Shown one piece after another: positions 23,164 to 39,594 of a DNA stretch of 64,000 nucleotides. This DNA is from a virus. Location: positions 1 through 64,000 of IMG/VR virus record IMGVR_UViG_3300022074_000013; one strand, written 5' to 3'. Position 1 is the first letter of the stretch, and each line of letters begins with the position of its first letter. The position numbers were made by a program, and so were the translations under genes. Under the pieces are notes generated by a model that had not been told where the DNA came from, did not search any database, and saw only the letters and a program-made list of their open reading frames with translations.

Positions 23164-23403
23164 ATGTCAAAGTTCGCTTACGAAAAAGGACATGCAAAAG
23201 TAGAAGGACATTCGACTCTACTTAGAGAAGAAAGTTCAAGTGCGATTATTAATAATGATATCAACGGATATCAAGCTGCTATTAGAAGAAAAAAAGTTTT
23301 TCAAATACAGCGAGAGGAAATAAATACTTTAAAAGTAGAAATGACAGAGATAAAACAACTATTAGGTGAAATATTAGAGAGAACAAATGGCAAAAACGAT
23401 TGA
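23164..23403 (+). CDS. Small conserved coiled-coil protein
   Basis: KVEGHSTLLREESSSAIIN...EINTLKVEMTEIKQLL; typical gene after the VrlC-like protein. Confidence 0.7.
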   Translation: MSKFAYEKGHAKVEGHSTLLREESSSAIINNDINGYQAAIRRKKVFQIQREEINTLKVEMTEIKQLLGEILERTNGKND

Positions 23404-24976
23404 CCAATTTAGTACGTTAGAAAACTTTAGAACTCGTTACAACGATTTAGCAAATGACGTTGGGGATATCTCTGGCTTAAGAACAGACGTTACAGGAAAC
23501 CTAATAGACGCAATCAATAGTATAGAAGATAAAACATTCTTCTATCAAGAGTTTCTTTATACTGCGACCAGTGGACAAACTGCATTTACAGGAAATGACG
23601 CATTTAGTAATGACCTAGTATTCAAGAAAGATAGAATACAGGTTTATAAAAATGGTGCATTGTTAAGAGTTGGTGACGACTATGTTTTAGCAAGTCAACA
23701 ATCAGACGGAACATTCAAACAGATTACACTTATTTCAGGTGCTACCACAGGTGATAAAATCGCAATCCATGCCTTTACTGGTTCATTCTTAACAGTTCAA
23801 GGTGGTGGTGTCGGTGGTAGTTCTCTATTTACAGAAACTGCAAACAATACAATCTTTAACCATAATAGTAATGGTATAGTATTAAACGCAACCAATACTC
23901 CTTCTATCACTTCATTAGATACTGGTATAAACATTCAGTTAGAAGGTGTAACTAAAGTTGACGGTAATCTATCAGTTGATACTGGTCATACATTTACTGC
24001 TCCAACAATTACAGACGGAACAGGAACATTTACTGGTGGTAATGGTACTGGTTGGACAAGTATAACTTCTACTTCGTTTGCTGGTAACTTAACAGGTAAC
24101 GTTGCAGGTGATACTACAGGAACACACATTGGGCCGTTGAGTTCAAGTTCAGGTAATATTCAAGTTAATTCAGCAACATACATAACAGAATTTAGAGGTG
24201 GTGGTTCAACCGAAGGACAGATTAGACTTAACTGTCATGTTAACTCTCATGGTCAAACTATTAGACCTCAACCACATAGTGAAGGTGTTACAAATACATT
24301 AACACTTCCTGCAGGTGGTGACCAAGAATTAGTTGGTACAACTGATACTCAGACTTTAACAAATAAAACTATTACAGGTACATTTACAGGAACTTTAACA
24401 GGTACAACTTCTGATATTTCTAATCATAGTATTACAGGATTGAGTGACGTTGGTGGAAGTGCCCCAAGTGACGGACAGATACTTGTTTATAGTTCAAGTA
24501 ATAGCAGATACGAAGCTACAGACCAAAATACTTCTGACAGTGTGACAGAAGGTTCAAGTAATTTATATTTTACAAACGAAAGAGTTGACGATAGAGTTAA
24601 TGCACTGATAGTTGGTGGAACAGGTATAGCAACTGTATATGACGATGCAAGTAACACATTAACAATTAATGGTTCTGCTCAATACGGTAATGAAGATGTC
24701 CTAGATTTCTTAGGTGGCGGTGGACTAGTAGGTGGAAATGGTATAGATTTAACTTATAATGATTCCGCTAATACATTAACCATTCACAGTGATATTGAAG
24801 GTGGTGCTGGTATGCTTGCAACTACAGAAGCTACAGGAGAAAACACCATAAATATCGGCGCAGGTAAAGGTATAAAAGTCAATGCAGATGATGTGCAAAT
24901 TGACTACGAAGTAACTAACTCAGCTCCAGGCTCAGTTGGTTCAACTTCTGACGGTCACCTTTGGTTTGTGATATAG
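23387..24976 (+). CDS. Tail fibre / whisker-like protein
   Basis: N-terminal TLENFRTRYN coiled coil, G/T/S-rich shaft, TEGSSNLYFTNERVDDRV module, C-terminal APGS..DGHLWFVI. Confidence 0.7.
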   Translation: MAKTIDQFSTLENFRTRYNDLANDVGDISGLRTDVTGNLIDAINSIEDKTFFYQEFLYTATSGQTAFTGNDAFSNDLVFKKDRIQVYKNGALLRVGDDYVLASQQSDGTFKQITLISGATTGDKIAIHAFTGSFLTVQGGGVGGSSLFTETANNTIFNHNSNGIVLNATNTPSITSLDTGINIQLEGVTKVDGNLSVDTGHTFTAPTITDGTGTFTGGNGTGWTSITSTSFAGNLTGNVAGDTTGTHIGPLSSSSGNIQVNSATYITEFRGGGSTEGQIRLNCHVNSHGQTIRPQPHSEGVTNTLTLPAGGDQELVGTTDTQTLTNKTITGTFTGTLTGTTSDISNHSITGLSDVGGSAPSDGQILVYSSSNSRYEATDQNTSDSVTEGSSNLYFTNERVDDRVNALIVGGTGIATVYDDASNTLTINGSAQYGNEDVLDFLGGGGLVGGNGIDLTYNDSANTLTIHSDIEGGAGMLATTEATGENTINIGAGKGIKVNADDVQIDYEVTNSAPGSVGSTSDGHLWFVI

Positions 24977-24993
24977 TGAATGAGTAATGTGTA

Positions 24994-26406
24994 ATGTCAG
25001 ACGAAATATATATAAACACCAAGAACACTCCGCATAGTCAACTAGGACAATTAGGTAGTTCAGGCAATTTTCAACAACCGTATCAAGGTCAAGCAGCTGT
25101 TACGGGTACTTTGCAGGCACAAAGAGCTGTAACTGGTCAAACTCCGACTACTTATCAGGCAAGATATCCATTTACTTACCAAGCAAACGCACGTGGAAGA
25201 TATCCATATCCTGCAAACTCTCAGACGCCATATCCTGCTTCAGCACAAGGACAATATCCATTTACTTATCCTGCGATAGGACAAAATCCCTATACGTTTG
25301 AATATATCGCAAGATATCCATTCGCTTATCAAGCAAGGTATCCGTATCCTGCAAACTATACAGCACAGGGAAGATATCCTGCTAATGCAAGTGGTACATA
25401 TCCTTATCAACAAAATTATCAAATAGCATATACTTTTCCGTATACCTATAGCGCCCGTAGACCTAGTCCTGCTAACCACCGTGGTACATATCCATATTCA
25501 GCGAGGACACAGGTAGTCAATAGGGCAAGATATCCGTTTACTACATCTACTCCCCTTTTTGGGCCTCACGGATATCAAGTTCCATATCCGTTCTTTTTTA
25601 GTTTTGACCCTAAAGACCCAGGCACAAATGCCCAAGGTCGAAGGCCTGCTAATAGACAAGGATATTATCAAGGGTCACAGAATGTAAGAGGTCGTACACC
25701 TTCTATTGCCAATGGAAGAAGACCTGTAAATGGTACAACTCCTTGGCCAGAACCTGAATTGAATTCACAGTTTCCGATTCCTTATGCGTATCAACAGCCT
25801 TATTCGTTTACTCCAAGAACACAACAACCATATATTGCAACTGGAAGATATCCATTTACACAGCAAAGTCAACAACCTTATATTACCAATGGGCAGGGAC
25901 AGGGTAGTACACAACACCAAAAAAATGCTCAAGGGCCTTATCCATTCACTTATCAAGCAAGATATCCATACCCTGCAACTTACCAAGCAAGAGGAAGATA
26001 TCCTGCTAGTGCACGTGGTATGTATCCAGCTCAAGCAAATGGACAACAACCGTTTAGTTATCAAGCAAACGCACGTGGAAGATATCCATTCATTTATACT
26101 GCACGTCAGCCAGGCACTTATCAAGCACAGGGAAGGTATCCATTTACATATCCTGCAAATGCTAGAGGAAGATATCCTGCTAGTGCACAGAATCCATATC
26201 CGTTCCAGCAGAACTATCAACAAAATTATATTTTCCAACAACCATATTCTACAACTAGAAGTATTGGTGCAGCTGCCAAAGTTAAAGCGGTGTACTTGAA
26301 TGACGCTGGAACTTTAAGAAAATTACAAGAAGTATATGTAAATAATCAAGGAACACTAGAAAAAACTCACCAAACAGTTCCAGCAGCTCAATTTAGTAAA
26401 TCATAA
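24994..26406 (+). CDS. Tyr/Pro/Gln/Arg-rich mirror-repeat protein A (putative fibre-tip filament/adhesin)
   Basis: 470 aa built from YQARYPFT, ANARGRYP and QQNYQ motifs in mirror register; paralogue of 32779-34152. Confidence 0.7.
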   Translation: MSDEIYINTKNTPHSQLGQLGSSGNFQQPYQGQAAVTGTLQAQRAVTGQTPTTYQARYPFTYQANARGRYPYPANSQTPYPASAQGQYPFTYPAIGQNPYTFEYIARYPFAYQARYPYPANYTAQGRYPANASGTYPYQQNYQIAYTFPYTYSARRPSPANHRGTYPYSARTQVVNRARYPFTTSTPLFGPHGYQVPYPFFFSFDPKDPGTNAQGRRPANRQGYYQGSQNVRGRTPSIANGRRPVNGTTPWPEPELNSQFPIPYAYQQPYSFTPRTQQPYIATGRYPFTQQSQQPYITNGQGQGSTQHQKNAQGPYPFTYQARYPYPATYQARGRYPASARGMYPAQANGQQPFSYQANARGRYPFIYTARQPGTYQAQGRYPFTYPANARGRYPASAQNPYPFQQNYQQNYIFQQPYSTTRSIGAAAKVKAVYLNDAGTLRKLQEVYVNNQGTLEKTHQTVPAAQFSKS

Positions 26407-26410
26407 TAGG

Positions 26411-26418
26411 TATAAATA
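26411..26418 (+). promoter_or_regulatory. Late promoter
   Basis: TATAAATA. Confidence 0.85.
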
Positions 26419-26423
26419 GTTAA

Positions 26424-26756
26424 ATGGCAATAATCGCAAACATATTCATAGACCAAGGTACAGACTTTGCTATACAAGTTGACCTAACAGATACAGTAGG
26501 TGATGTATTGAATCTCACTGGATTTACTGCGACTGCCCAATTAAGAAAAACATATGGTTCTTCAAATGCGGCCGCAACCTTTACATGTTCACATAATGGA
26601 GTTGGTGGAACAGTTACAATGACATTAACTGATACTATTACAACTGCTTTAGAAGCAGGAAGATATGTATATGATTTATTGATAACGGACAGTGGCGGTT
26701 CAATAAGTCGTGTCGTTGAAGGACAAGCAACAGTAACGCCAGGCGTAACGAGGTAA
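26424..26756 (+). CDS. Small Ig-like virion protein (BppU N-terminal-like)
   Basis: IFIDQGTDF..LTGFTATAQLRK..GRYVYDLLI..RVVEGQATVTPGVT; late promoter upstream. Confidence 0.7.
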   Translation: MAIIANIFIDQGTDFAIQVDLTDTVGDVLNLTGFTATAQLRKTYGSSNAAATFTCSHNGVGGTVTMTLTDTITTALEAGRYVYDLLITDSGGSISRVVEGQATVTPGVTR

Positions 26757-26758
26757 AC

Positions 26759-26965
26759 ATGGCAATTAAAGGAAAACTTAGAGGAACAGGAAATATCAAA
26801 GTACAAACTTTAAAAGTTGGAGTTACAGACGTTAATCTATCAGCAAAATCCATTCAGGAACTACAAGACGTAGAAGCTTCAGAAACTGATAAAGGGTATC
26901 TACAATACGACCAAACCACCGATAAGTGGAAAACTACCACAGTCATTGACGGTGGCACTTTCTAA
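26759..26965 (+). CDS. Small fibre-associated protein ending IDGGTF
   Basis: LQDV...GYLQYDQTTDKW fibre module followed by IDGGTF. Confidence 0.65.
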   Translation: MAIKGKLRGTGNIKVQTLKVGVTDVNLSAKSIQELQDVEASETDKGYLQYDQTTDKWKTTTVIDGGTF

Positions 26966-26968
26966 TCG

Positions 26969-26976
26969 TATAAATA
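26969..26976 (+). promoter_or_regulatory. Late promoter (fibre gene 27095)
   Basis: TATAAATA. Confidence 0.85.
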
Positions 26977-27094
26977 GTATAAGACACATATCAAGGGAAC
27001 AACCAGTGAGTTCCGACCCACATTGTGAGTGGATAGGTTCATTATGGATATACCCATGTGGGATTAATAACAGAATTATACGAGGAAAAAATAA

Positions 27095-28528
27095 ATGGCA
27101 ACAGTAATTCAAATTAAAAGAACGACTGGTGTTTCTAGCCCTACAGTATCGGATTTAGCAGAAGCGGAATTGGCGTATGTCCAAGACCGTTCTAATGACG
27201 GTGCGTCCTCAAAGTTGTTCATTGAGTCTGTAGATTCAAGTTCAAACCCAGTTATACATGAAATTGGTGGTAAATTTTTTACTGATATCATAAAGGGTTC
27301 TACACCCACACCTGCTAACTTAATTGTTGGTAATGGTGCGACTGCTGGTGCAGAGATTCAACTTAGAGAAGATTCTGACAACGGTACAAACTATGTTGCT
27401 TTGAAATCGCCAAATGCGGTTGGTTCAAATGTAACATTTACACTGATGGGTGCAGACGGTTCTGCTAATCAGGTAATTGAAACCGATGGTTCAGGAAATT
27501 TAGGTTTTAGGACAGTAACATCAACAATTGACGGTGCAACAGACACTAATATCACTTCAGCAGCTGACGGTGCAATGTTACTGTATGATACAGGAACATC
27601 TAAGTGGATAGATAACGTAATGTCAGGTGACGCTACTATGGCGGACACTGGTGTTATGACTATCTCAAATGACGCAGTCACACTTGCTAAAATTGCAGAC
27701 GCAGTTATTATTACAGAATCAGAAGGTATCTCAAGTAATGATGTAGATACGGGGTTCCCAACAGCGGCTGCTGTTAAGGACTATGTTGATTCAAACATAA
27801 CTGCTCAAGATTTAGACGTTACAGGTGATTCAGGAACAGGTGCGGTAGACTTAGATTCTCAAGCGCTAAATATCGTAGGAACAACAAACGAGATTGTAAC
27901 TTCTGCGAGTGGACAAACAATCACAGTAGCTTTACCTGATGACGTAACTGTAGGAAATAGTCTAACAGTAACAGGTAACTTAACGGTTAACGGTACTACC
28001 ACAACTGTTAACTCAACAACTACAACAGTAGACGACCCAATCTTTACAGTTGGTGGAGACAGTGCTCCTGGCTCAGACGACAACAAAGACAGAGGTATCG
28101 AGTTTAGATACCATGACGGTTCTTCTGCTAAAATTGGTTTCTTTGGATATGACGATTCAGTAAATAAGTTTACGTTTATCTCAGACGCTACAAACACTTC
28201 CGAAGTATTTTCAGGTTCAGCAGGTAATGTTGCATTTGGAAACATGGAAGGTGTTGGTTTAGCATTAAGTGGTTCAATAACTTCTGTAGACGGTTCTGCA
28301 CCAACTAACGGTCAGATTCTAATGGGACATACTTCAAATGGAGATATGCAATTAGGAACAATCACTGCAGGTGAAGGTATTGACGTAACTAATGGTGCTG
28401 GTAGCATAACAATTACGGGAGAAGACGCAACAACGTCAAACAAAGGTATCGCAAGTTTTGCTAGTGCAAACTTTACAGTATCAAGTGGTGCAGTAACTAT
28501 CACTGGTATTGACGGTGGGACATTTTAA
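27095..28528 (+). CDS. Tail fibre protein
   Basis: MATVIQIKR..LAEAELAY N-terminus, GNLTVNGTTTTVNST..DNKDRGIEF module, ends IDGGTF. Confidence 0.75.
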   Translation: MATVIQIKRTTGVSSPTVSDLAEAELAYVQDRSNDGASSKLFIESVDSSSNPVIHEIGGKFFTDIIKGSTPTPANLIVGNGATAGAEIQLREDSDNGTNYVALKSPNAVGSNVTFTLMGADGSANQVIETDGSGNLGFRTVTSTIDGATDTNITSAADGAMLLYDTGTSKWIDNVMSGDATMADTGVMTISNDAVTLAKIADAVIITESEGISSNDVDTGFPTAAAVKDYVDSNITAQDLDVTGDSGTGAVDLDSQALNIVGTTNEIVTSASGQTITVALPDDVTVGNSLTVTGNLTVNGTTTTVNSTTTTVDDPIFTVGGDSAPGSDDNKDRGIEFRYHDGSSAKIGFFGYDDSVNKFTFISDATNTSEVFSGSAGNVAFGNMEGVGLALSGSITSVDGSAPTNGQILMGHTSNGDMQLGTITAGEGIDVTNGAGSITITGEDATTSNKGIASFASANFTVSSGAVTITGIDGGTF

Positions 28529-28548
28529 TTATTAGAATAGGGTAATAC

Positions 28549-29688
28549 ATGGCAACAGTCATAACGTTCAAGAAGTCATCGACTCAGAACGCTGTTCCAA
28601 CTACCTCAGATATCACTCTTGGGGAATTGGCAGTAAATACTTACCACGGTAGGTTTTACACTGAGAAGAATGACGGTTCAGCTGCCATTGTAGAAGTAGG
28701 GTCTAATCCTGCATCATTCACTATTAATGACGCAATCACATTCCCCACTTCTGACGGTTCAGCTGACCAAATAATTACAACCGATGGTTCGGGGACTTTG
28801 ACGTGGGCAGACCAAAGTGGCGGAAGTTATGGAACAGGTGCAACTTTTACCTTTTCTCTAACAGGAACCACAACCACTATATCAGGAAATGATGATGATG
28901 GGCAAGCATTGTCATATGATATTGGAAAAGAAGCAGTATATCTAAACGGTGTACTATTACAAGACGGTGGTGTTGACTACGCAACAACAAGTTCCTCAGT
29001 AATTACTCTTCAAGCAAATGGTGAAAGTGGTGACGTTGTTTGTATTAAAACACCTAAAAATCCAGGCGTATTAGTTGAAACTGCAAGTTCAGCATTGACA
29101 ACTACTGATTCAAACCAAACTATTCTTTCAATTGCTTCTGCTGGAACAAAGTCAACTAAAATATCTTTGACTGCAGTTCATTCAACAGGTTCACATTCAT
29201 GCGAAGTTCTCATGGGTAATGACGGTAGTAACGCATTCTTTTCACAATACGGTGACGTAACAACTACAGGTTCATTCTTGTATGATTTATCCACAACAAT
29301 GTCAAGTGGTAATCAATTATTGAGAGCGACACCTGCTAATACTAATACAACTTTCTTTTTAACTTACAGTAGATTACCAGCACTCAAAAACGGTGAGTTG
29401 ACAACTACAACTACAACTGCAGACCAAACATTAGATACGTGTTCAGTTGCATATGAAGGAGTTAAGTATTCATTACTTGCAGTTCATTCAAGTGGGTCAC
29501 ATGCGTGTGAGGTTGTAGTAGGTACAGACGGTACAAACGCATTCTTCTCACAATATGGCGATGTTATAACTGCAAGTTCTTTATTCACTCTAAATACATC
29601 AGTTAGTTCAGGAAATACTAATCTATTAGTAACTCCTGCTAATACGAATACTACGTTCTATTGGAACGTGACTAAGAGAGGAGAATAA
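28549..29688 (+). CDS. Tail fibre-associated protein with duplicated C-terminal beta domain
   Basis: MATVITFKK..LGELAVNT N-terminus; two copies of AVHSxGSHxCEV..DGxNAFFSQYGDV..TPANTNTTF. Confidence 0.7.
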   Translation: MATVITFKKSSTQNAVPTTSDITLGELAVNTYHGRFYTEKNDGSAAIVEVGSNPASFTINDAITFPTSDGSADQIITTDGSGTLTWADQSGGSYGTGATFTFSLTGTTTTISGNDDDGQALSYDIGKEAVYLNGVLLQDGGVDYATTSSSVITLQANGESGDVVCIKTPKNPGVLVETASSALTTTDSNQTILSIASAGTKSTKISLTAVHSTGSHSCEVLMGNDGSNAFFSQYGDVTTTGSFLYDLSTTMSSGNQLLRATPANTNTTFFLTYSRLPALKNGELTTTTTTADQTLDTCSVAYEGVKYSLLAVHSSGSHACEVVVGTDGTNAFFSQYGDVITASSLFTLNTSVSSGNTNLLVTPANTNTTFYWNVTKRGE

Positions 29689-30101
29689 TGCCAAGGTCAT
29701 TAGCATTCAAACTTGCAGAAATTTCTAGGCACATAGAATATGATGCCACTAATGACGATATTGTTGTAAGTAAAGAATTAGTTTCTTCAAGAAGGAAATC
29801 GGGTTCTACAACTACGACTGCGACAACTCAAGTCGCACTGGATACGTTTGCACATGCAACATTCTCAACTGCAAGATACATTGTATCCGTAACTCAAGGT
29901 TCAGATTATCATTCTACAGAACTTGTTATATCTCATAACGGTTCTAGTGCAGATATCCTTGAGTATGGTATTCTCAAATCAGGTAGTGATTTAGCAACAT
30001 TCAGTGCTGATATCAGCGGTGCAAATGCAAGATTACTCATAACTCCTGCCTCTTCAAGTTCAACTGTCTTTAAATTTGATAGACAACTAGTAGAATCTTA
30101 A
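29688..30101 (+). CDS. Small virion protein, related to the C-terminal repeat of the upstream gene
   Basis: TTTATTQVALDTF..ARYIVSV..YHSTEL..EYG..RLLITPA matches the repeated domain of 28549-29688. Confidence 0.65.
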   Translation: MPRSLAFKLAEISRHIEYDATNDDIVVSKELVSSRRKSGSTTTTATTQVALDTFAHATFSTARYIVSVTQGSDYHSTELVISHNGSSADILEYGILKSGSDLATFSADISGANARLLITPASSSSTVFKFDRQLVES

Positions 30102-30119
30102 TCCTAAACTCCGTTTAGT

Positions 30120-30127
30120 TATAAATA
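30120..30127 (+). promoter_or_regulatory. Late promoter (fibre gene 30191)
   Basis: TATAAATA. Confidence 0.85.
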
Positions 30128-30190
30128 ACAGTAGACATTTTTAATAATGCTGTGAACTGGGATAGTGAACAGTAAACGGAGGCGAACAGC

Positions 30191-32755
30191 GTGGCTGCAA
30201 AGAATTTTCATGTAAAAAACGGACTGAGTATCGGTACAACCGAGGTAATCAACAGCTCAGGTCTTATACAAACAGCCGCACTAGGAAGTGATTTTAACGA
30301 AAAGGTTGACGACAGAGTCAACGCATTAATCGTTGCAGGAACAGGTATTTCTACCTCATATGATGATAGTGCAGGCACATTAACAATCAACGGACAAGTC
30401 GGGGATATCACGGGCGTAACTGCTGGTGACGGTCTTTCAGGTGGTGGAACAAGTGGTGCGATAACACTCGCACTGGATAGTTCAGTAGCTGGTGACGGTC
30501 TTGCACATTCAAGTGGTGTTCTATCAGTCGGAGTAGACGATAGTTCAATCGAAACAGATTCAGACGCATTAAGAATTAAAGCAAGTGGTGTTACTAATGC
30601 CATGTTGGCAGGTTCTATTGCAAACGATAAACTATCAAATTCATCAATTACAGTTTCAGACGGCAGTAATACAACTGCGACAGCATTAGGTGGAACAATA
30701 ACCTTTGCTGGTGGTGAAGGTATAGATGTTGCAGAAAGTTCAGGCACAGTCACATATTCAGCGGAACTTGCAACAGAAACAAACGCTGGTGTCGCAACAT
30801 TTGACGGAACAGACTTTACTGTATCAGCTGGTGATGTCACGGTAAACGCAGAAAGAATTCAAGATATCGTTGGTGCAATGGTATCAGGAAATACTGAAAG
30901 TGGTATCACAGTTACATATGAAGACGGTGACGGTACTTTAGACTTCTCTACTACACTAGGTGGTCTTGCTGGTACTTCTGATAATATCACAGAAGGTTCA
31001 ACAAATTTATTCCTTACCAACGAAAGAGTAGACGATAGAGTAAACGCACTATTGACTGCTGGTACAAACATGTCATTGACATATGACGATGCAGCTAATA
31101 CTTTAACAATTGCGTCTTCGGGTAAAACAGAAGAAGAAATAGAAGACATTGTTGGTGCACAACTTGCTACAAACGGTTCACACACAAATATCACTGCAAC
31201 ATATGACGATGCTGGTGACGGTGCGGTAGACCTTGCAATTACAGACGCAACAATCAGAGGAAAGGTTTCCGTAACAGATTCAGGTGGAGACGGTTCACTT
31301 GCATACAATAACTCTACAGGTGTTATCACATATACAGGCCCAAGTGCGTCAGAAGTAAGAGCACATATCTCAGGTGGAACAGGTGTTACTGTATCAAGTG
31401 GTGAAATTGCAATTGGACAAGCAGTTGCAACAAGTTCAAATGTAACTTTCGCAGACGTAGCTGCAACAGGTAATTTGACAGTTACAGGTAACTTAGATGT
31501 AAACGGAACAACCACAACTTTAGACACTACAAACTCAACAATTACAGATAGATTGATTGAGTTAGGAAATGGTACAACAGGAACACCTGCAAATGATATG
31601 GGTATTGTTCTTGAAAGAGGAGACTCAGACAACGCATTTATAGGTTGGGATGAAAGTGCAGACAAATTCTTAGTAGGTACAGGTTCATTTACAGGTGCAA
31701 GTACAGGTGACTTAACAGTTACTACAGGAACACTTGTAGCAAACTTAGAAGGTAACGTAACTGGTAACGTAACTGGTGACTTGACTGGTAACGTAACTGG
31801 TAACGTTAGTGGAACTGCAGCTACAGTAACAGGTGCAGCTCAAACAAACATTACAAGTCTTGGAACTCTTACAGCATTAACAGTAGACGATATTAGTATT
31901 GACGGTTCAAAGATATCTATAGCCGATAACTCAGCAACTGCTCTTACCATTTCAGAAGGTAGTAATGACTATTTAACTTTTAATACTACAGACTCAGCAG
32001 AAACAATATTATTAGGAAAACCTCTTGATACAAATGGTAATGCAATTATTTTTGATGTAGATGGTGATACATCAATTGCTGGTTCACCTATTGATGATAT
32101 GTTGATATTTAAATCTGGTGGAGCTTCATGGTTATTAGCTTCTGCAAATGTTGGTTTATCACCAAATGTTGCATTCCCCCTTGGTAATTCAAGTTATCCG
32201 TTTACCCATTTATATGTGGACAATATTTTTGTTGATGGTAATACAATTAAATCAGAAAATTCAGATGGCGATTTAATATTTAAAGGCAACGATGGCGGTT
32301 CAGAAATAACTGCTCTTACACTTGATATGTCTGAAGCAGGTGCAGCTACTTTTAATGCAGGAGTAACTGCTACTACATTTACAGGTGCATTAACTGGTAA
32401 CGTTACTGGTAACTTAACTGGTAATGTCACAGGTAATGTTAGTGGAACTTCAGGTTCAACAACAGGTAATGCCGCTACAGCAACTGCATTACAAAATGCA
32501 AGAACAATCAACGGAGTATCTTTTGACGGAACTGGAAACGTAACAACCTTGACTGCAGGAACAGGTGTTTCTGTATCAGGAACCGAAGTTGCAATCGGAC
32601 AAGCAGTTGCTACAAACAGTAACGTGACCTTTAATCAGATACACACCGACTACGCAAGTAATAGTGGACAAGTTGCAAGGAACATTTACCAATCAACTTC
32701 TGCTCCAAGTGGTGGAGACGGACAAGTCGGCGACTTATGGATTTTATACTCTTAA
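30191..32755 (+). CDS. Long tail fibre protein (GTG start)
   Basis: KNFHVKNGL N-terminus, DDRVNAL/TYDDA repeats, GNVT tetrapeptide runs, C-terminal SAPSGGDGQVGDLW. Confidence 0.75.
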   Translation: MAAKNFHVKNGLSIGTTEVINSSGLIQTAALGSDFNEKVDDRVNALIVAGTGISTSYDDSAGTLTINGQVGDITGVTAGDGLSGGGTSGAITLALDSSVAGDGLAHSSGVLSVGVDDSSIETDSDALRIKASGVTNAMLAGSIANDKLSNSSITVSDGSNTTATALGGTITFAGGEGIDVAESSGTVTYSAELATETNAGVATFDGTDFTVSAGDVTVNAERIQDIVGAMVSGNTESGITVTYEDGDGTLDFSTTLGGLAGTSDNITEGSTNLFLTNERVDDRVNALLTAGTNMSLTYDDAANTLTIASSGKTEEEIEDIVGAQLATNGSHTNITATYDDAGDGAVDLAITDATIRGKVSVTDSGGDGSLAYNNSTGVITYTGPSASEVRAHISGGTGVTVSSGEIAIGQAVATSSNVTFADVAATGNLTVTGNLDVNGTTTTLDTTNSTITDRLIELGNGTTGTPANDMGIVLERGDSDNAFIGWDESADKFLVGTGSFTGASTGDLTVTTGTLVANLEGNVTGNVTGDLTGNVTGNVSGTAATVTGAAQTNITSLGTLTALTVDDISIDGSKISIADNSATALTISEGSNDYLTFNTTDSAETILLGKPLDTNGNAIIFDVDGDTSIAGSPIDDMLIFKSGGASWLLASANVGLSPNVAFPLGNSSYPFTHLYVDNIFVDGNTIKSENSDGDLIFKGNDGGSEITALTLDMSEAGAATFNAGVTATTFTGALTGNVTGNLTGNVTGNVSGTSGSTTGNAATATALQNARTINGVSFDGTGNVTTLTAGTGVSVSGTEVAIGQAVATNSNVTFNQIHTDYASNSGQVARNIYQSTSAPSGGDGQVGDLWILYS

Positions 32756-32778: not shown

Positions 32779-34152
32779 ATGGCATCAGGCTCACAGAAGG
32801 TTAAAACACCTACAGGCTGGAACGCAACTCAAGGTGCGTGGGTTAAAACGCCTGACGGTTGGCGTGCAGTAGAGCAAGTCTATATTAAAACGCCTGACGG
32901 GTGGAATAATGCTAGTGGTCAAGAAGATACACAACAACCTGCTCGAAGACCTGCAACTGGTAGACTTCAAGCACAAAGACCTGCAACTGGTCAATTACAG
33001 GCACAAAGACCTGCAATAGGAACAACACCTGCAAGAAGACCTGCGACTGGTAGACTTCAAGCACAAAGACCTGCATCAGGACAGTCGCCAAGCACTTATC
33101 AGGCGCAAGGAAGATATCCATATCCTGCCAATGCACAGGCACCTTATCCTGCTAATGGACAACAGCCAGGCACATATCCTGCTAACGCTCAGACGCCTGG
33201 CACATATCCTGCAAATGCTAGAGGAAGATATCCTGCTAACGGACAATCGCCAGGCACATATCCTGCTAATGCGAGACAGCCAGGAACTTATCAGGCAAGA
33301 TATCCATTTACTTATCCTGCTAACTCACAAAGTCCATTTACGTATCAGGCAAGATATCCATTTACATACCCTGCTAACTCACAGTCACCATTTACGTATC
33401 AGGCAAGATATCCGTTTATTGCACCTACAACATATCAGGCACCTACAACGTATCAGGCAAGATATCCATTTATTACACCTGCGAGACAACCTTTCACTTT
33501 CTCATTCATGAAAGACGGGATAGTTTATAACGGTCAGAATCCTTTTACTACAAGTGCAAGGGGTAGGTATCCTGCTAATACAACGTATCCTGCTAACACG
33601 AATACAAATGCACGTGGAAGATATCCTGCCAACGCAAGGCAGCCAGGAACTTATCAGAATAACGCAAGAGGAAGATACCCTGCTAATGCAAGACAGCCAG
33701 GCACATATCAAAACAATGCACGTGGAAGATATCCTGCGAACTCACAGTCACCATTTACTTATCAGACGCCTTATAGAACTCCGTTTACATATCAGGCAAG
33801 ATATCCATTTACATATCAAGCGTCTTATAGAATTCCGTCTACTTATCAGGCGTCTTATAGAACACCGTTTACGTATCAGGCAAGACAACCTAGCACGTAT
33901 CAAGCACAAGGAAGATATCCGTATCCTGCTAACGCACAGACATCATATAATTTCCAACAGAACTATCAGAACCCATACCCGTTCCAACAGAATTATCAAA
34001 ATCCGTATCCGTTCCAACAGAACTATCAGAACCCGTATCCGTTCCAACAGAACTATCAGAACCCGTACCCATACCAGCAGAACTATCAAAACCCTGTTCA
34101 ACGTTGGGACGGTGTGTTACAACAACAATGGCCTGCAACACCTATTTCGTAA
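32779..34152 (+). CDS. Tyr/Pro/Gln/Arg-rich mirror-repeat protein B (putative fibre-tip filament/adhesin)
   Basis: Three N-terminal (V/I)KTPxGW repeats, then about 390 aa of mirror-symmetric repeats about the central FSFMKDGIVY turn. Confidence 0.72.
   Translation: MASGSQKVKTPTGWNATQGAWVKTPDGWRAVEQVYIKTPDGWNNASGQEDTQQPARRPATGRLQAQRPATGQLQAQRPAIGTTPARRPATGRLQAQRPASGQSPSTYQAQGRYPYPANAQAPYPANGQQPGTYPANAQTPGTYPANARGRYPANGQSPGTYPANARQPGTYQARYPFTYPANSQSPFTYQARYPFTYPANSQSPFTYQARYPFIAPTTYQAPTTYQARYPFITPARQPFTFSFMKDGIVYNGQNPFTTSARGRYPANTTYPANTNTNARGRYPANARQPGTYQNNARGRYPANARQPGTYQNNARGRYPANSQSPFTYQTPYRTPFTYQARYPFTYQASYRIPSTYQASYRTPFTYQARQPSTYQAQGRYPYPANAQTSYNFQQNYQNPYPFQQNYQNPYPFQQNYQNPYPFQQNYQNPYPYQQNYQNPVQRWDGVLQQQWPATPIS
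32929..33078 (+). repeat. Five imperfect 30-bp repeats (xxQAQRPATG)
   Basis: agacctgcaactggt/agacttcaagcacaa units with period 30. Confidence 0.85.
33289..33396 (+). repeat. Two 54-bp repeats (YQARYPFTYPANSQSPFT)
   Basis: Direct inspection of DNA and protein. Confidence 0.85.
33607..33714 (+). repeat. Two 54-bp repeats (NARGRYPANARQPGTYQN)
   Basis: Direct inspection of DNA and protein. Confidence 0.85.
33952..34095 (+). repeat. Five near-perfect 30-bp tandem repeats (FQQNYQNPYP)
   Basis: ttccaacagaactatcagaacccgtatccg units. Confidence 0.9.
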
Positions 34153-34155
34153 CAC

Positions 34156-34163
34156 ACTAAATA
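34156..34163 (+). promoter_or_regulatory. Variant late promoter for the enzyme cluster
   Basis: ACTAAATA, the same variant as at 55775; CCTAAATA precedes gp3. Confidence 0.6.
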
Positions 34164-34188
34164 TACTCACATAAGTGAGATTTTTATT

Positions 34189-35715
34189 ATGACAGAAATT
34201 GACCATTTAATTGATTTTATTCCATTTCGCCTAGACTGGACGCAAGAAAGTGTTCGTAGACAACTCTTTTATAAGAGCGGTCACCATATTGGCAATATTC
34301 CTGTTAACGAAGACGGTTCTATTGATACTGAATGTGACACATATAAAGTTGTACAATACTTTGTAGATAATGTTTATGTTCCTAATGTGAAATTAGTAAC
34401 TTGGGGTGATATTAAAAAGTGCGGATTCATGCCTTTGGAATCATTTGGATTAGACTATCAAGCGTCTAATTATTTAAAGTATATTCCTAATTTCCATACT
34501 TACGGTGCTAGTATGAAAAAAATAACTACCGCAACGGGAGATATTACTGGTGGAAATGAAGATGGAAATGATATAACTGGTTCGGGATTTTATCATGGGT
34601 GTAAAGGACATTGGTTATTACATGATATTCAGAAGAATGGTTTAAATCAACCGATAACTATTGTATTACAAAAAAGCGGAAGAAACGATAGAATTGAATA
34701 CAACCCACATATACACCCTGGCTCAGTACGACAAGGTGTATTCGGTGCGACAGACGATGAAAGTATGACCTGTATTGTTTGGGACGCATATAACGCCTTT
34801 GATTGGATAGAACCTTTAACTACTGATGAGTGGTTAAGAAGTTTTACTACACCACAGTTTGACGGCATGAGACCGACACAATTACATGTATCTTACAATT
34901 ATACTAGTATTGAAGTGCAAACTTCGGGTGAATGGAATAATGGAAGGTCAGAACCCGATAGACAATGGAGAGAAAAAGTAAAGGATTTTTCTAAAAAGGT
35001 ATCAGAAAAATTCAATGGAAAACCTTTAAACATATATCTTGGGTATGATTCAAGACATGAAGATATAACAGACGTACAAATAAATTCTATTAATCAAGCA
35101 TGTCAAAGAGCAGTTAATGACTCACAGTGTAGATTTGAACCTGAAATAAAACTACTTGACGTATCAAAGATTCCCGAATATACTAGAGAGTACGCAAATC
35201 AATCGACAGAATTTACTTATAGCAGATTCTTAATTCCATACTTAGAAAATTATGAAGGGTTTAGTATATTCATAGATAATGATTTTGTATGGAAACAACC
35301 TTGGTATGAAATGTTTTATTTTCTACACCCCGACAATGCAGTAGCATGTGTTCAATATGAATATGAACTAGAAAAAATGTCTAAGACTAAAATGGGTGGT
35401 GAAGAGAATGTTATGTATCCTAAAAAGTTGTGGTCTAGTTTCATGATATTTAATAATGCTCATGAAGACTGTAAAAAATTAACACCCGAAGTTGTAAATA
35501 CTGCGAGTGGTCAATACTTACACCAGTTTGAATGGACTGATAGTATTGATAGAATCCCTGACAAATATGTCTTTACAGAAGGCATGTCAGACGAAGATAA
35601 AAGATATCATGCGGTGCATTATACAAGAGGTGGCCCATGGATAAAAGATATGGACTGTAGTGACATATCGCAATTAAAGTTATACGAAAAGTATAAAAAT
35701 ATACTCAATAAATAA
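34189..35715 (+). CDS. Fusion: ParB/Srx-like N-terminal domain + GT-A glycosyltransferase (GT8/CDI-like)
   Basis: C-terminal half: IYLGYDSRHE, STEFTYSRFLIPYL, IFIDNDF (DxD), KKLWSSFMIFN, LHQFEW, HYTRGGPW. N-terminal half: DIQKNGLNQPI...HPGSVR. Confidence 0.75.
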   Translation: MTEIDHLIDFIPFRLDWTQESVRRQLFYKSGHHIGNIPVNEDGSIDTECDTYKVVQYFVDNVYVPNVKLVTWGDIKKCGFMPLESFGLDYQASNYLKYIPNFHTYGASMKKITTATGDITGGNEDGNDITGSGFYHGCKGHWLLHDIQKNGLNQPITIVLQKSGRNDRIEYNPHIHPGSVRQGVFGATDDESMTCIVWDAYNAFDWIEPLTTDEWLRSFTTPQFDGMRPTQLHVSYNYTSIEVQTSGEWNNGRSEPDRQWREKVKDFSKKVSEKFNGKPLNIYLGYDSRHEDITDVQINSINQACQRAVNDSQCRFEPEIKLLDVSKIPEYTREYANQSTEFTYSRFLIPYLENYEGFSIFIDNDFVWKQPWYEMFYFLHPDNAVACVQYEYELEKMSKTKMGGEENVMYPKKLWSSFMIFNNAHEDCKKLTPEVVNTASGQYLHQFEWTDSIDRIPDKYVFTEGMSDEDKRYHAVHYTRGGPWIKDMDCSDISQLKLYEKYKNILNK

Positions 35716-35733
35716 GAATAGAGGTAATATATT

Positions 35734-36291
35734 ATGAATCAACTTGTTTTTACAGAAGATAACAATCTTCACATCACCAAACCAAACGGTTTGAGATACC
35801 AATTTGACAATGTCGAAAAACCAAATTTAGGTTTTGATTTTGACGTTATTGTTTATGACGGAGACAGCGAATTTAAAATTGTCGGTTACAACGATGACAT
35901 TCCTTTCGATGAACAGGATAAACATGCACTTGTAGACGAAGAAAGAGACGCTATCGAACAGTTTATTGAACAGTCAGAACCACCAAATGGTATGTCCTTA
36001 AACAATCAGTTTATGGCAGACTTAGAAAATTTAACTCACGACAAAATAGAAGACTGTGCAATAAGATATAATTTTAGAAATCTTAACGAATGTGTATATG
36101 CTGGACGAGAAGGTTCTAATCATACGTATAGGTCAGAAGCACGTAGAGTTTTAGAATATGCAGATGCAACTTGGTCAATATGTTTTCAAACGCAAGAAGA
36201 AATAATGGCAACAAGAGAAGACCATTTGAAACCTTTTGACGAATACGTAGTAGTGTTGCCTGAAACAGTATCACCAAATAATATTTGTTAA
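35734..36291 (+). CDS. Hypothetical, possible tail fibre assembly chaperone
   Basis: Acidic; C-terminal YAG..SNHTYRSEARRVLEYADATW resembles fibre-assembly proteins. Confidence 0.45.
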   Translation: MNQLVFTEDNNLHITKPNGLRYQFDNVEKPNLGFDFDVIVYDGDSEFKIVGYNDDIPFDEQDKHALVDEERDAIEQFIEQSEPPNGMSLNNQFMADLENLTHDKIEDCAIRYNFRNLNECVYAGREGSNHTYRSEARRVLEYADATWSICFQTQEEIMATREDHLKPFDEYVVVLPETVSPNNIC

Positions 36292-36292
36292 A

Positions 36293-37054
36293 GTGAACGT
36301 TGTCTACCACGACAAACCTTTCAGACTAACGAAAGATAATTATCCGTTAGGGGATACCTTTCATGTTATCGATAATTATTTGGCGGACGAATTACACCAC
36401 CATTGGGATAAGTCATTAGTCGCAAGTAACCTTTGGTCTAAAACTAATCAAGTTGCGTCCGATAGTAAAACAGGATTACCACATCATTCCTTTTGGGGTG
36501 GAACATTTTTTAGAGATGTTCCTAATCATGAACACGTAGATTGGTGTCAAGGAAATCAGATAAATCGTTCAGATACTTACTTTGCTTCATATTTTAATAC
36601 TAGAGTAATGAATGACTTTGGTTTTCGTTGGGTTGAGTTTGATTACATGGGTTTGAATTCACAAACTCAAGGACTAGACGGTACATGTCATAATGATTGT
36701 GCGCCTGAATGTGAGTGGAACATATCTTTTTTGTATTACTTAAATACATTTTGGAATCCTAAATGGGGCGGTGACTTAAGAGTGTATGATGAAAATATTG
36801 GTAGCGGTGTTGCAGAAGAAATGAACAAACACGAAATAGGAAGAATAGAATTTAAACCAAACAGATTACTTATGTTTGACGGAAGGATACCTCATGGTGC
36901 AGAAGCACCAAAACCTTCTGCAAGATATGTAGATAGACGTTCATGTGTATTGCGTGGTTCAGAAATAAGATTAGTACCTCAAGAAGAACAAAGAAAAGAA
37001 GTTGCACCAAGACAACTAAGATATCAGAGATATATGAGATATGCCGACAATTGA
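36293..37054 (+). CDS. 2OG-Fe(II) oxygenase (prolyl-4-hydroxylase-like)
   Basis: HND, SFLYYLNTFWNPKWGGDL, FKPNRLLMFDGRIPHGA, distal R; GTG start. Confidence 0.85.
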   Translation: MNVVYHDKPFRLTKDNYPLGDTFHVIDNYLADELHHHWDKSLVASNLWSKTNQVASDSKTGLPHHSFWGGTFFRDVPNHEHVDWCQGNQINRSDTYFASYFNTRVMNDFGFRWVEFDYMGLNSQTQGLDGTCHNDCAPECEWNISFLYYLNTFWNPKWGGDLRVYDENIGSGVAEEMNKHEIGRIEFKPNRLLMFDGRIPHGAEAPKPSARYVDRRSCVLRGSEIRLVPQEEQRKEVAPRQLRYQRYMRYADN

Positions 37055-37910
37055 GTTTAAAACATATAATGATACCGCATTTGAATTAATGCGTCCTGTA
37101 CCTGCAAGTAAAATGCAACCCGATTGGTGGAAAAAATCTAAAGTGCATATGATTGATAAAGGGGTGGTTGGGATATCATTAAGAGCTTGTCCTGCAATGC
37201 ATGATTGGTTATCAACAGGATATTATATCGCAACAAATAGAGATATACATTGTGAATTCAATCAAACTCTTGTAAGTGGTGGTGATTGGCATGCTACCGT
37301 TCCGCCTGACGGTGAAAATTTTGAAGCTTCATATGCTTCACCTACACATTCAAAACACCAACTAATGAATGATAATTTCTCATTCTTAAAAGGAGATGGT
37401 TCTGATGAAAATCCTCATGACGCATTCAAATTTAGAGTACCTTGGTCTGTAGTAACACCGCCTGGCTATTCTTGTTTATATCTTGACCCCTTTTTACATC
37501 AGAATAAATATTTTAGAACATGGCAAGGAACAATGGATACTGATATGTTTAATACCTTAACAGATAATACGCAGATTATTATGTATCCATTAAGTGACAA
37601 GTCTTTTGTTATACCTAAAGGAACACCCATAGTACAGATAGTTCCTTATAGGAGAGAACAGTGGACTGCGTCTTATATTAACATGGACGGGAGTGCATAT
37701 ATAAATGAAGTAAGTCATTTAACAAGTGAATACGGCAAACCTTCAATATCTGAATTGTGTGAAGTTGAGGGTGATGCAAGTTCGCCAGACGGACAGGTGC
37801 CTGGCGGATTTTACAGAAAATACATGTGGACGACTAAAGCAAAAAACTTTAAGGACGCTCCACCTAATGAATGCCCCTTTGACCCAAAAACAGGAGAAAT
37901 GAAAAAGTGA
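37041..37910 (+). CDS. Conserved phage protein with dUTPase-like beta-fold (DUF6065-like)
   Basis: RACPAMHD..GY, FKFRVPWSVVTPPGYSCLYLDPF, IPKGTPIVQIVPYRRE. Confidence 0.55.
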   Translation: MPTIEFKTYNDTAFELMRPVPASKMQPDWWKKSKVHMIDKGVVGISLRACPAMHDWLSTGYYIATNRDIHCEFNQTLVSGGDWHATVPPDGENFEASYASPTHSKHQLMNDNFSFLKGDGSDENPHDAFKFRVPWSVVTPPGYSCLYLDPFLHQNKYFRTWQGTMDTDMFNTLTDNTQIIMYPLSDKSFVIPKGTPIVQIVPYRREQWTASYINMDGSAYINEVSHLTSEYGKPSISELCEVEGDASSPDGQVPGGFYRKYMWTTKAKNFKDAPPNECPFDPKTGEMKK

Positions 37911-38545
37911 AATACGAAGGATATACAGAGTTCGAGGCTAATAAAACTAAAGGTGATAACAATGTTGGAGTTGATATCGATAGTTTATACGAAGGACAAA
38001 CTAATGTTCAAATAGAAGGTTTTGATGTAGGTACAGACGCCAGTACACCTGCTTTTTATATTTGGAATTCTATGAACTGGCACGAAGATACTTATTGTGG
38101 TTGGAAAACTTTTAAAGGTGAACAAGACCATAATACACTGTCAACAGTATGGGAAACGAGGTGGTGGCATTCAATCCAACCAGCACCTTACAAGTATGTG
38201 GGTGGCCCTTATAGAGCTGCTGTTGCAGATTATACTTTTGGTGTGTTTGGATTATTCTTTTGTCAAAGGTTTGTTCCAATTACAGATTTGAGAGTCACTT
38301 ATGACAAAGCAATTAAAGTAGGTGATACTATAGAATGTGTAATAACAAACACTGTAATTGAAAATGACATTTTGAAACAAGAGTTAATTCAAAGAATTTA
38401 CGGTAGTGATGAAATTGTTGGTCGTGCTTGGGCAAGTCACTTCATGAAGAAGAAAGAAGACTATAAAGAAAAACAACAAGACTTAACTGAATTAAATGGT
38501 GACGGTAATCGTGACCGAGGAAGGTACGGGGAAGATGTCAGTTAG
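37907..38545 (+). CDS. Putative hotdog-fold (thioesterase/dehydratase-like) protein
   Basis: GGPYRAAVADYTFG helix followed by TDLRVTYDKAIKVGDTIECV. Confidence 0.5.
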   Translation: MKYEGYTEFEANKTKGDNNVGVDIDSLYEGQTNVQIEGFDVGTDASTPAFYIWNSMNWHEDTYCGWKTFKGEQDHNTLSTVWETRWWHSIQPAPYKYVGGPYRAAVADYTFGVFGLFFCQRFVPITDLRVTYDKAIKVGDTIECVITNTVIENDILKQELIQRIYGSDEIVGRAWASHFMKKKEDYKEKQQDLTELNGDGNRDRGRYGEDVS

Positions 38546-39296
38546 ATTACTGTTTCCACATTACGTATTTCAAAGAAATATGTTAGACCCAAATCTTGAC
38601 GAAAGTCAAGGATATGATTTGGAGTATAACGAAATGTTAGTTGCAGAAGTTGACGCAATGCGTAAGCGTGACCCTAAAGGTAGACTTGTATCTAATTCAC
38701 CTAACCCTGCTACAATGCATAGGTCGGGTTGGCAGTCTAATGACGGTTGTGAAAGTAGTCCAGTCTTTCAGAAATGTATGAATCGTATCAGTAAGTTTTT
38801 TTCTGACGAGGTTTTACCTTTTCATGGTATTCAAAATTCTAATGGTCTTAAAATGAGGCCAGGCAATTCATGGGCAAACATAAATGAAACTATGTCTTGG
38901 AATAGACCTCATACTCATAATGGTTGTTGGTATTCAGGTGTTTTATATCTAAAAGCAGACGGAGATGAAGGTAACTTTTCTGCAATTGATACAGACTCTA
39001 AAGTTCTGTCTATGTTTCCGCACCACCAAAGAGTTAGAACTAATTGGGACGTTCAACCTAGAACAGGAGATATTCATATATTTTCTAGTGGTTTAATGCA
39101 TATGGTTGAACCTAATATGACTGACAAAGAAAGATATAGCATATCGTTCAATATGGATTTACATGACGTGGTAGGCCCAACTGGATTCTTTCCTGATAAT
39201 GGTGCTGGTTACTTTGGTCAAGACTTTACTGTTGATGAATGGAATCCTGATGAATTTTCATTTAATTTAGACGAAAGAGGAAATCCAATACGTTAA
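38535..39296 (+). CDS. 2OG-Fe(II) oxygenase (TIGR02466-like)
   Basis: Likely start MSVRLLFP; GWQS, SWANIN..WNRPHTH..WYSGVLYL, FSSGLMHMVEPN..RYSISFN. Confidence 0.85.
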   Translation: MSVRLLFPHYVFQRNMLDPNLDESQGYDLEYNEMLVAEVDAMRKRDPKGRLVSNSPNPATMHRSGWQSNDGCESSPVFQKCMNRISKFFSDEVLPFHGIQNSNGLKMRPGNSWANINETMSWNRPHTHNGCWYSGVLYLKADGDEGNFSAIDTDSKVLSMFPHHQRVRTNWDVQPRTGDIHIFSSGLMHMVEPNMTDKERYSISFNMDLHDVVGPTGFFPDNGAGYFGQDFTVDEWNPDEFSFNLDERGNPIR

Positions 39297-39312: not shown

Positions 39313-39582
39313 ATGGAAGAAAACCTAATAGCCTTTGACGCACACTTACTTTGGAATATAGTTCTAACCTTTATTCTCATGCCTTTAGGTTTCTTAATCC
39401 GTAACCTATTATCTGAACAAAAAAGAATTGATATTCTTATCAATAAAACACGTGAAGAAGTCGCCAAAGACTACGTAACACGTGAACAACTATCCAAAGA
39501 ACTAGAAAGATTAATGGATACCTTAGACAGAATCGATACCAAAATCGATAGACTACAGAATAAAACTTACTTCCAAGAATAA
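39313..39582 (+). CDS. Small TM + coiled-coil protein
   Basis: N-terminal hydrophobic helix; TREEVAKDYVTRE...LDRIDTKIDRL. Confidence 0.7.
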   Translation: MEENLIAFDAHLLWNIVLTFILMPLGFLIRNLLSEQKRIDILINKTREEVAKDYVTREQLSKELERLMDTLDRIDTKIDRLQNKTYFQE

Positions 39583-39586
39583 TTCT

Positions 39587-39594
39587 TATAAATA
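39587..39594 (+). promoter_or_regulatory. Late promoter (gp13)
   Basis: TATAAATA. Confidence 0.85.

Follow-up and report, generated by a model that had tools for sequence, protein, structure and literature searches.

A conserved cassette of predicted 2-oxoglutarate oxygenase and GT8-like glycosyltransferase genes beside a Pro/Tyr-rich hairpin protein gene in uncultured marine T4-like phages

What do the enzymes encoded between the tail-fibre and neck genes of marine T4-like phages act on? Few unexplained genes of these phages are as common as those for 2-oxoglutarate (2OG) oxygenases and GT8 transferases, which are currently read as affecting the 2OG balance, repairing DNA or changing the host O-chain. 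We analysed a 64 kb stretch of DNA (hereafter the window), which is the start of the 94.8-kb IMG/VR viral contig IMGVR_UViG_3300022074_000013, and in which six genes, G1 to G6, lie between the gene of a proline/tyrosine-rich repeat ('hairpin') protein, protein B, and gp13. The clade to which it belongs offers an unusually clean case, with a fixed and apparently late operon, intact catalytic residues and a very unusual fibre protein next to it. The best single reading, still a tentative one, is that the cassette acts late in infection on a phage structural protein, most plausibly the upstream Pro/Tyr-rich hairpin protein or proteins, because the genes hold a fixed position after the hairpin genes, have a late box of their own, include a member of a protein-hydroxylase family and have viral precedents.

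The cassette consists of six co-directional open reading frames (ORFs) within 34189–39296, with spacings of +18, +1, −14, −4 and −50 nt, and G1 starts 36 nt past the end of protein B (34152). The features of the locus are the following.

32779–34152, + strand: protein B (hpB), a 457-amino-acid (aa) Pro/Tyr/Gln/Asn/Thr-rich repeat ('hairpin') protein, the proposed substrate, outside the enzyme operon
34156–34163, + strand: promoter box of late type, ACTAAATA, 25 nt upstream of the start codon of G1
34166–34179, + strand: small stem-loop with a 5 bp stem, then a T-run, separating the box from the start of G1
34189–35715, + strand: G1, 508 aa, with a variable N-terminus, a conserved middle domain (~135–260) and a predicted GT8-like GT-A domain (~276–508)
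35734–36291, + strand: G2, 185 aa, clade-specific, with an invariant REGS.H..RS motif
36293–37054, + strand: G3, 253 aa, predicted 2OG-Fe(II) oxygenase of prolyl-4-hydroxylase/prolyl hydroxylase domain (PHD) type
37041–37910, + strand: G4, 289 aa, predicted dUTPase/dCTP-deaminase-superfamily protein, DUF6065-related
37907–38545, + strand: G5, 212 aa, apparent lineage-specific insertion, ending with a tail that belongs to G4 elsewhere
38496–39296, + strand: G6, 266 aa, PF13759/TIGR02466 2OG-oxygenase-like protein
39313–39582, + strand: o89, 89 aa, with a hydrophobic helix at the N-terminus and a charged tail predicted to be helical, as read from the sequence
39587–39594, + strand: canonical TATAAATA late promoter before gp13, at the end of the cassette transcription unit

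Cassette orthologues were found in ~50 distinct IMG/VR contigs. In comparison with the related contig L003, the ratio of nonsynonymous to synonymous substitution rates (dN/dS) was 0.17–0.29 for G1–G6 and 0.04–0.06 for gp13, gp17 and o89. Coordinates, orthologues and dN/dS thus agree with the initial annotation, made from the sequence of this DNA, in which six closely spaced genes follow protein B behind a late-type box; the six genes are real and under purifying selection. The small gene o89 (dN/dS 0.058; 92–98% identity in close relatives) accompanied the cassette at every locus, in each case placed between G6 and gp13, and its relatives carry the name 'lipoprotein' in PHROGs.

The structural genes of this phage are closest to those of Pelagibacter phages Mosig and HTVC008M and of Methylophilales phage Melnitz, with ~70% nucleotide identity over the portal-to-capsid genes; searching 50,697 phage records by megablast with the enzyme cluster returned no match. 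A VrlC homologue was located at 16497–23159 (35% identity to HTVC008M VrlC, E 9e-141), fibre-like genes span 23387–32755, and the genes gp13 to gp18 run from 39619, where gp13 begins, with gp14 beginning at 40438. The variable cluster between VrlC and the neck genes has been described as the 'host recognition cluster' (HRC), rich in GT8 glycosyltransferases that were interpreted as O-chain modifiers (Zaragoza-Solas et al. 2020, PMC7029224). Since the VrlC homologue lies on one side and gp13 on the other, the cassette falls within this HRC region, in the company of tail-fibre genes.

Synteny was judged on IMG/VR loci (labelled L002 and so on), and the counts refer to distinct contigs. The order hairpin gene(s), G1, G2, G3, G4, G6, o89, gp13 was found in all cassette-bearing loci except L075 and a sister clade, in which G1 has moved and the order is hairpin, G2, G3, G4, G6, o89, gp13. 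Across the loci, the cassette proteins fall to 39–57% identity, and gp13 and gp17 stay at 63–83%. The proposed co-occurrence of hairpin genes and cassette was positive within the clade: at every locus where 1.8 kb or more of sequence precedes G1 (27 of 27), one or two Pro/Tyr-rich genes (P+Y 0.17–0.25) end just before G1, and the link extends to the sister clade. The gene order is kept even at loci with a divided hairpin gene or one of twice the length. The cassette is thus fixed in the fibre-to-neck segment of a large clade of uncultured marine T4-like phages. By gene content its core is the four genes G2, G3, G4 and G6, with G1 as an apparently movable accessory and G5 as a probable recent insertion. 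In L012 and L035–L074 (for example, L041 3820–7089 and L064 2931–7005), the hairpin protein is represented by two consecutive Pro/Tyr-rich genes, sometimes with an ORF of 86–100 aa between them, for a total of ~570 to 1260 aa. The fibre-adjacent proteins of Mosig and HTVC008M are Gly-rich, not Pro/Tyr-rich, and a tblastn search with protein B against the phage records gave no match, a result left uninformative by the low-complexity filter.

Thirteen + strand copies of the canonical TATAAATA promoter were found, 11 of them just 5′ of late genes, including those at 30120 (fibre B) and 39587 (gp13). At each of the loci inspected, the first gene of the cassette is preceded, at 13–42 nt, by a [C/A/T]TAAATA box, and such a box also precedes the relocated G1 and the G2-first cassette of the sister clade. 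Stem-loop or terminator-like structures were seen 5′ of G1 in L006, L009, L040, L042, L049 and L056: the stem-forming sequence differs in L006 and L009, yet still pairs, and in several relatives the interval from the hairpin gene to the box contains a GC-rich hairpin that is stronger, resembles a terminator and has a T-run. Fibre gene and cassette therefore seem to be transcribed as separate units. As the box is retained before whichever cassette gene comes first, even where G1 has moved or G2 leads, we infer with good support that the cassette is transcribed late and separately.

G3 matched PF13640 at 38.5 bits (cut-off 27; E 2.4e-9), and its residues H133-x-D135, H201 and R215 are invariant in nine orthologues, down to 47% identity, which confirms, at the level of sequence, the earlier label of a prolyl-hydroxylase-type 2OG oxygenase with the complete HxD...H...R iron/2OG-binding set. 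Its nearest solved relative is 6T8M, Dictyostelium PhyA (DdPhyA; profile E 8.3e-5), a protein prolyl hydroxylase (PMC7864055). G3 also matches a PHROG named 'DNA endonuclease V' (phrog_274), and Mosig_00058 (L117 12696–13208), annotated with the same name, has a G3-like N-terminus (VIDNYL) and a weak match to the G3 profile (E 2.7e-5); this 'DNA endonuclease V' annotation may be a mislabelled 2OG oxygenase family. G6 scored above the cut-offs of both PF13759 (68.4 bits against 27; E 7.9e-19) and TIGR02466 (78.5 bits against 62.5), in keeping with its label as the second 2OG oxygenase. Its putative metal ligands H139, H141 and H202 and residue R213 are invariant, and its solved relatives, 3BVC and 2RG4, are uncharacterised proteins.

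G1 had been labelled as a fusion of a ParB-like domain with a GT8-like glycosyltransferase. Residues ~276–508 are predicted to adopt a GT-A fold closest to GT8 in VIA, with LgtC as the best match (Z 15.2, root-mean-square deviation 3.4, 202 aligned residues; predicted local distance difference test (pLDDT) of the model, 62). The other VIA matches comprised GT8 3TZT (Z 14.1), GlyE (13.6), the Skp1 Gat1 galactosyltransferase 6MW8 (12.6), glycogenin (12.5), A64R of Paramecium bursaria chlorella virus 1 (PBCV-1; 11.9), Mimivirus R699 (10.1) and UGGT, and Foldseek returned UGGT, LgtC and GT8 at E ~1e-5. This fold group includes protein-directed GT8/GT24 enzymes (GlyE, UGGT, glycogenin, Skp1 Gat1 and PBCV-1 A64R), which we counted in favour of tailoring. 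G1 itself did not match the Pfam GT8 family (PF01501); four of 13 aligned homologues did (best E 6.6e-5). D363-x-D365 and H477-Y-T-R-G-G-P-W484 are invariant in the 13 sequences (36–86% identity), the latter corresponding to the C-terminal His motif type of GT8 enzymes, H-x-x-G-x-x-K-P-W. Together, the fold matches, the DxD motif and the Pfam matches of homologues confirm the C-terminus of G1, as modelled, as a GT8-like retaining GT-A domain. The ParB-like half of the label did not hold: a search of the entire phage record with ParB_N (PF02195) at E<=10 came back empty, with control genomes matching, and there was no ParB signal among the Pfam matches of the 13 homologues or in the PDB profile search. 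A ParB-like domain was accordingly rejected at the sequence level, the N-terminal half being modelled poorly, with pLDDT <50 over conserved motifs; such motifs are carried by the middle domain. A correspondence between the G1 N-terminus and the Mosig ORF upstream of its glycosyltransferase was also rejected, there being no similarity between them.

For G4, the AlphaFold2 model (pLDDT 74) gave VIA matches at Z 9.6–5.3, the top 22 of which were all dUTPase/dCTP-deaminase folds or viral derivatives, led by the dUTPase of African swine fever virus (Z 9.6, root-mean-square deviation 3.0, 128 aligned residues; Foldseek E 8e-4). In hhalign, G4 160–201 aligned with Escherichia coli Dut 84–121, which holds motifs III and IV, at E 0.0014 and a probability of only 17.5%; G163..D166-T-D168 (G-x-M-D-T-D) falls on motif III including the catalytic Asp, and I-V-Q199 on motif IV. 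The dUTPase phosphate-binding motif II (Arg-Ser) was not evident in an alignment read by eye, and motifs I and V were compared by eye only. G4 itself did not match PF19541 (DUF6065) at E<=10; this domain is carried by its distant homologues P0078, P0080, P0081 and P0082 and by 11% of one Atlas cluster. The label of a DUF6065/dUTPase-like protein is thereby confirmed for G4, as a predicted dUTPase-superfamily fold with DUF6065 relatives. The idea that G4 is a divergent 2OG oxygenase was rejected (hhalign probability <=0.2% against G3 and G6). Like members of the dUTPase/dCTP deaminase superfamily, G4 can be aligned over the fold, at Z 8–9.6, and over Dut motifs III and IV, but it is about twice as long, with insertions, its motif II is apparently not conserved, and its family forms phage paralogue arrays; viruses have also reused the dUTPase fold in proteins without catalytic activity, such as pp71, which stands 13th among the VIA matches of G4.

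In unrelated phage contigs (L090, L088, L103, L104 and L108), DUF6065-like paralogues form arrays of two to five members spanning no more than 20 kb, interleaved in L108 with four PF13759-type genes. In Halorubrum tailed virus 10 (HRTV-10; L118 gp35), a DUF6065-like gene is placed between tail-fibre/adhesin genes and a class II ribonucleotide reductase gene, on the strand opposite to the tail genes.

G5 was found at full length only in the window and in L002–L005. A conserved tail of ~20 residues, KEKQQDLTELNGDG, ends G5 in the window, where it overlaps the G6 start by 50 nt, and in most relatives the same tail ends a longer G4 of 302–336 aa; G5 has the appearance of a module that entered between the core of G4 and its original C-terminal tail. 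Its earlier hotdog-fold label was not borne out, as the match to 4HBT (E 0.12, 13.2 bits) fell under the cut-off of 20.6 and a five-sequence profile found no PDB match. G2 had been called fibre-chaperone-like, which likewise could not be confirmed: it had no match in Pfam, PHROG, NCBIfam or the PDB profile search, none of its 142 metagenomic homologues is annotated, and the Atlas leads were weak (0.83–0.86; Caudo_TAP_N 0.86, XkdW 0.85). In the sister clade, G2 comes directly after the hairpin gene. A 110-aa gene at 26424–26756, behind a TATAAATA box and 17 nt after a second hairpin gene, matches the PHROGs L-shaped tail fibre assembly protein; a relation between it and G2 was looked for and rejected.

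If the cassette tailors the fibre, G3, and perhaps G6 too, would hydroxylate side chains of the hairpin protein, G1 would use a UDP-sugar as donor to attach a hexose, with G2 serving as a helper, and G4 might handle a nucleotide product or cofactor; the late timing, the substrate and each of these chemical steps are proposed here from the genes and their arrangement. There are viral precedents for such chemistry: Mimivirus collagen is modified by hydroxylation and glycosylation (PMC9546862), and purified virions of cyanomyovirus S-SCSM2R were found to contain an Ofd1-like prolyl hydroxylase (PMC12801897). The more specific proposition, that the enzymes hydroxylate and glycosylate a self-pairing Pro/Tyr-rich hairpin fibre protein before or during its assembly, with G4 and G6 in new roles, is rather improbable as a whole. 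The initial annotation had made this kind of claim for the hairpin proteins, and it gained from the clade-wide synteny and the separate late box and lost from the wider relatives, the contents of the slot and the family of G4.

Several observations weigh against fibre tailoring. Gene order alone is no proof of fibre decoration, and the association of hairpin genes with the cassette is largely one vertically inherited arrangement. The cassette occurs without an adjacent hairpin gene in one contig, L075, where G2-G3-G4-G6-o89-gp13 come right after two baseplate-like genes and G1 is likewise missing from the vicinity, against 27 of 27 other loci in which the two are linked. A second hairpin gene in the window (24994–26406) has no cassette-type neighbours. 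G1 moves independently, its homologue in the sister clade lying 3′ of the capsid gene gp23; in L031, a G1 relative sits beside gp44/gp45 clamp-loader/replication genes and an NT5C nucleotidase gene, and in Mosig a relative of G1 residues 268–487, the glycosyltransferase part only, lies in a methyltransferase/sulfotransferase/glycosyltransferase block. The dUTPase-like G4 has no obvious place in protein tailoring. Relatives of G4 (DUF6065) and G6 (PF13759) are found in many phages without a Pro/Tyr-rich neighbour, and those of DUF6065 are often multi-copy, up to five per locus, and often near PF13759 genes. Finally, the fibre-to-gp13 slot holds 2OG oxygenases in cultured relatives as well: in Mosig, four annotated 2OG oxygenases and a G3-like gene, together with ferrochelatase, haem oxygenase and bilin reductase genes, all co-directional with the structural genes, and in HTVC008M, four oxygenases and ferrochelatase on the opposite strand, with some of the slot oxygenases in both phages being G6-type. 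In L075, the usual fibre/hairpin region is missing, and a 515-nt non-coding stretch before G2 (2438–2951) carries GGGACTCCTA four times and a CTAAATA box.

These slot contents, and the wide spread and frequent multiplication of G4 and G6 relatives, speak for the published, host-directed reading, which is about as likely as fibre tailoring and must be held just as tentatively. The cassette would then be a generic auxiliary island in a gene-collecting site of marine T4-like phages, in which the GT8 enzyme would modify the O-chain of lipopolysaccharide (LPS) or a different envelope glycan, and small metabolites would be the substrates of G4 and the oxygenases. The window lies where the GT8-rich cluster between VrlC and the neck genes was read as a set of O-chain modifiers (PMC7029224), and the best structural match of G1, LgtC, is an LPS enzyme. 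However, the cassette of this clade is not variable, its order and position being fixed across deep divergence; its own late-type promoter box would be late for converting the host surface against superinfection; and proteins are the substrates of the G3 family (PF13640) and of the solved relative nearest to G3.

A nucleotide-directed role was considered because G4 is dUTPase-like. An oxygenase, a GT-A enzyme and a dUTPase-like enzyme could together make a hydroxylated and glycosylated base, comparable to base J, whose synthesis requires a thymidine hydroxylase, JBP, and a glucosyltransferase. The predicted fold of G4, with motif III, including the aligned Dut catalytic Asp, and motif IV apparently kept, is consistent with this, as are the placement of the L031 G1 relative next to nucleotidase and clamp-loader genes and of the HRTV-10 DUF6065 gene beside ribonucleotide reductase. 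We nevertheless consider it unlikely: neither G3 nor G6 is an oxygenase of the TET/JBP or AlkB type, a DNA-binding ParB-like domain in G1 is unsupported, motif II of dUTPases is seemingly not kept in G4 as aligned by eye, arrays of DUF6065 paralogues would be odd for a nucleotide-pool enzyme, and the cassette lies in the late structural region, not in the replication module.

The oxygenases might instead hydroxylate host proteins, such as translation factors or ribosomal proteins, and tune translation late in infection, a role unrelated to the fibre. EF-Tu is a target of bacterial PHD, and Rps23 is a target of Ofd1/Tpa1. The family of G3, PHD/P4H (prolyl-4-hydroxylase), has microbial members with such targets (PMC7864055), and the core genes of pelagimyophages include an aspartyl/asparaginyl beta-hydroxylase, ribosomal protein S21 and a peptide deformylase (PMC7029224). 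This explanation is unlikely, as it leaves the GT8 enzyme, G2, G4 and the fixed position after the hairpin genes unexplained.

If fibre tailoring is what these genes do, they would be the first pathway in T4-like phages that is dedicated to modifying a tail appendage after translation, and host recognition by abundant ocean phages would hinge on a protein chemistry that is invisible in gene sequences. Otherwise, the cassette would remain a defined gene set through which functions could be assigned to proteins of the DUF6065 and TIGR02466 families.

A first point of comparison is the HRC of pelagimyophages and cyanomyophages, which occupies the same genomic place and combines tail fibres, GT8 glycosyltransferases and oxygenases. 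The HRC has been described as hypervariable, with its glycosyltransferases assigned to the host O-chain, whereas here an order-fixed cassette with its own late box recurs in ~50 contigs, G2 has no homologue in cultured phages, and the G4 homologues of cultured phages are confined to haloarchaeal viruses and two Synechococcus phages, with none in pelagimyophages. Modification of virion proteins by virus-encoded oxygenases and/or GT-A enzymes of the virus itself is a second parallel, in Mimivirus (L230, R699), in PBCV-1, with its capsid glycosyltransferase A64R, and in mycobacteriophage. Hydroxylation and glycosylation of Mimivirus collagen have been attributed to L230 and R699 (PMC9546862, PMC12279948), and glycosylation of mycobacteriophage virions is reported to have been described by Freeman et al. 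2023 (cited in PMC12801897). Other enzyme families and substrates are involved in those systems, and the modification was measured there, whereas it is suggested here by gene order.

The third parallel is the glycosylation of hydroxyproline in Skp1 of Dictyostelium and Toxoplasma, in which PhyA acts first, then Gnt1, then further glycosyltransferases including the GT8-like Gat1. The substrate is unrelated, the similarity to PhyA is weak (profile E 8e-5), and the chemistry of the cassette is read from its genes. An enzyme of the GT60 (Gnt1) type, which adds the first sugar to hydroxyproline, was not seen in the cassette, where the one glycosyltransferase is GT8-like and no glycosyltransferase domain was found in G2–G6. 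What the two share is that G3 is nearest to DdPhyA (6T8M; PMC7864055), that G1 matches Gat1 (6MW8) at Z 12.6, and that both would follow a logic of hydroxylation and then glycosylation, as proposed here for the phage.

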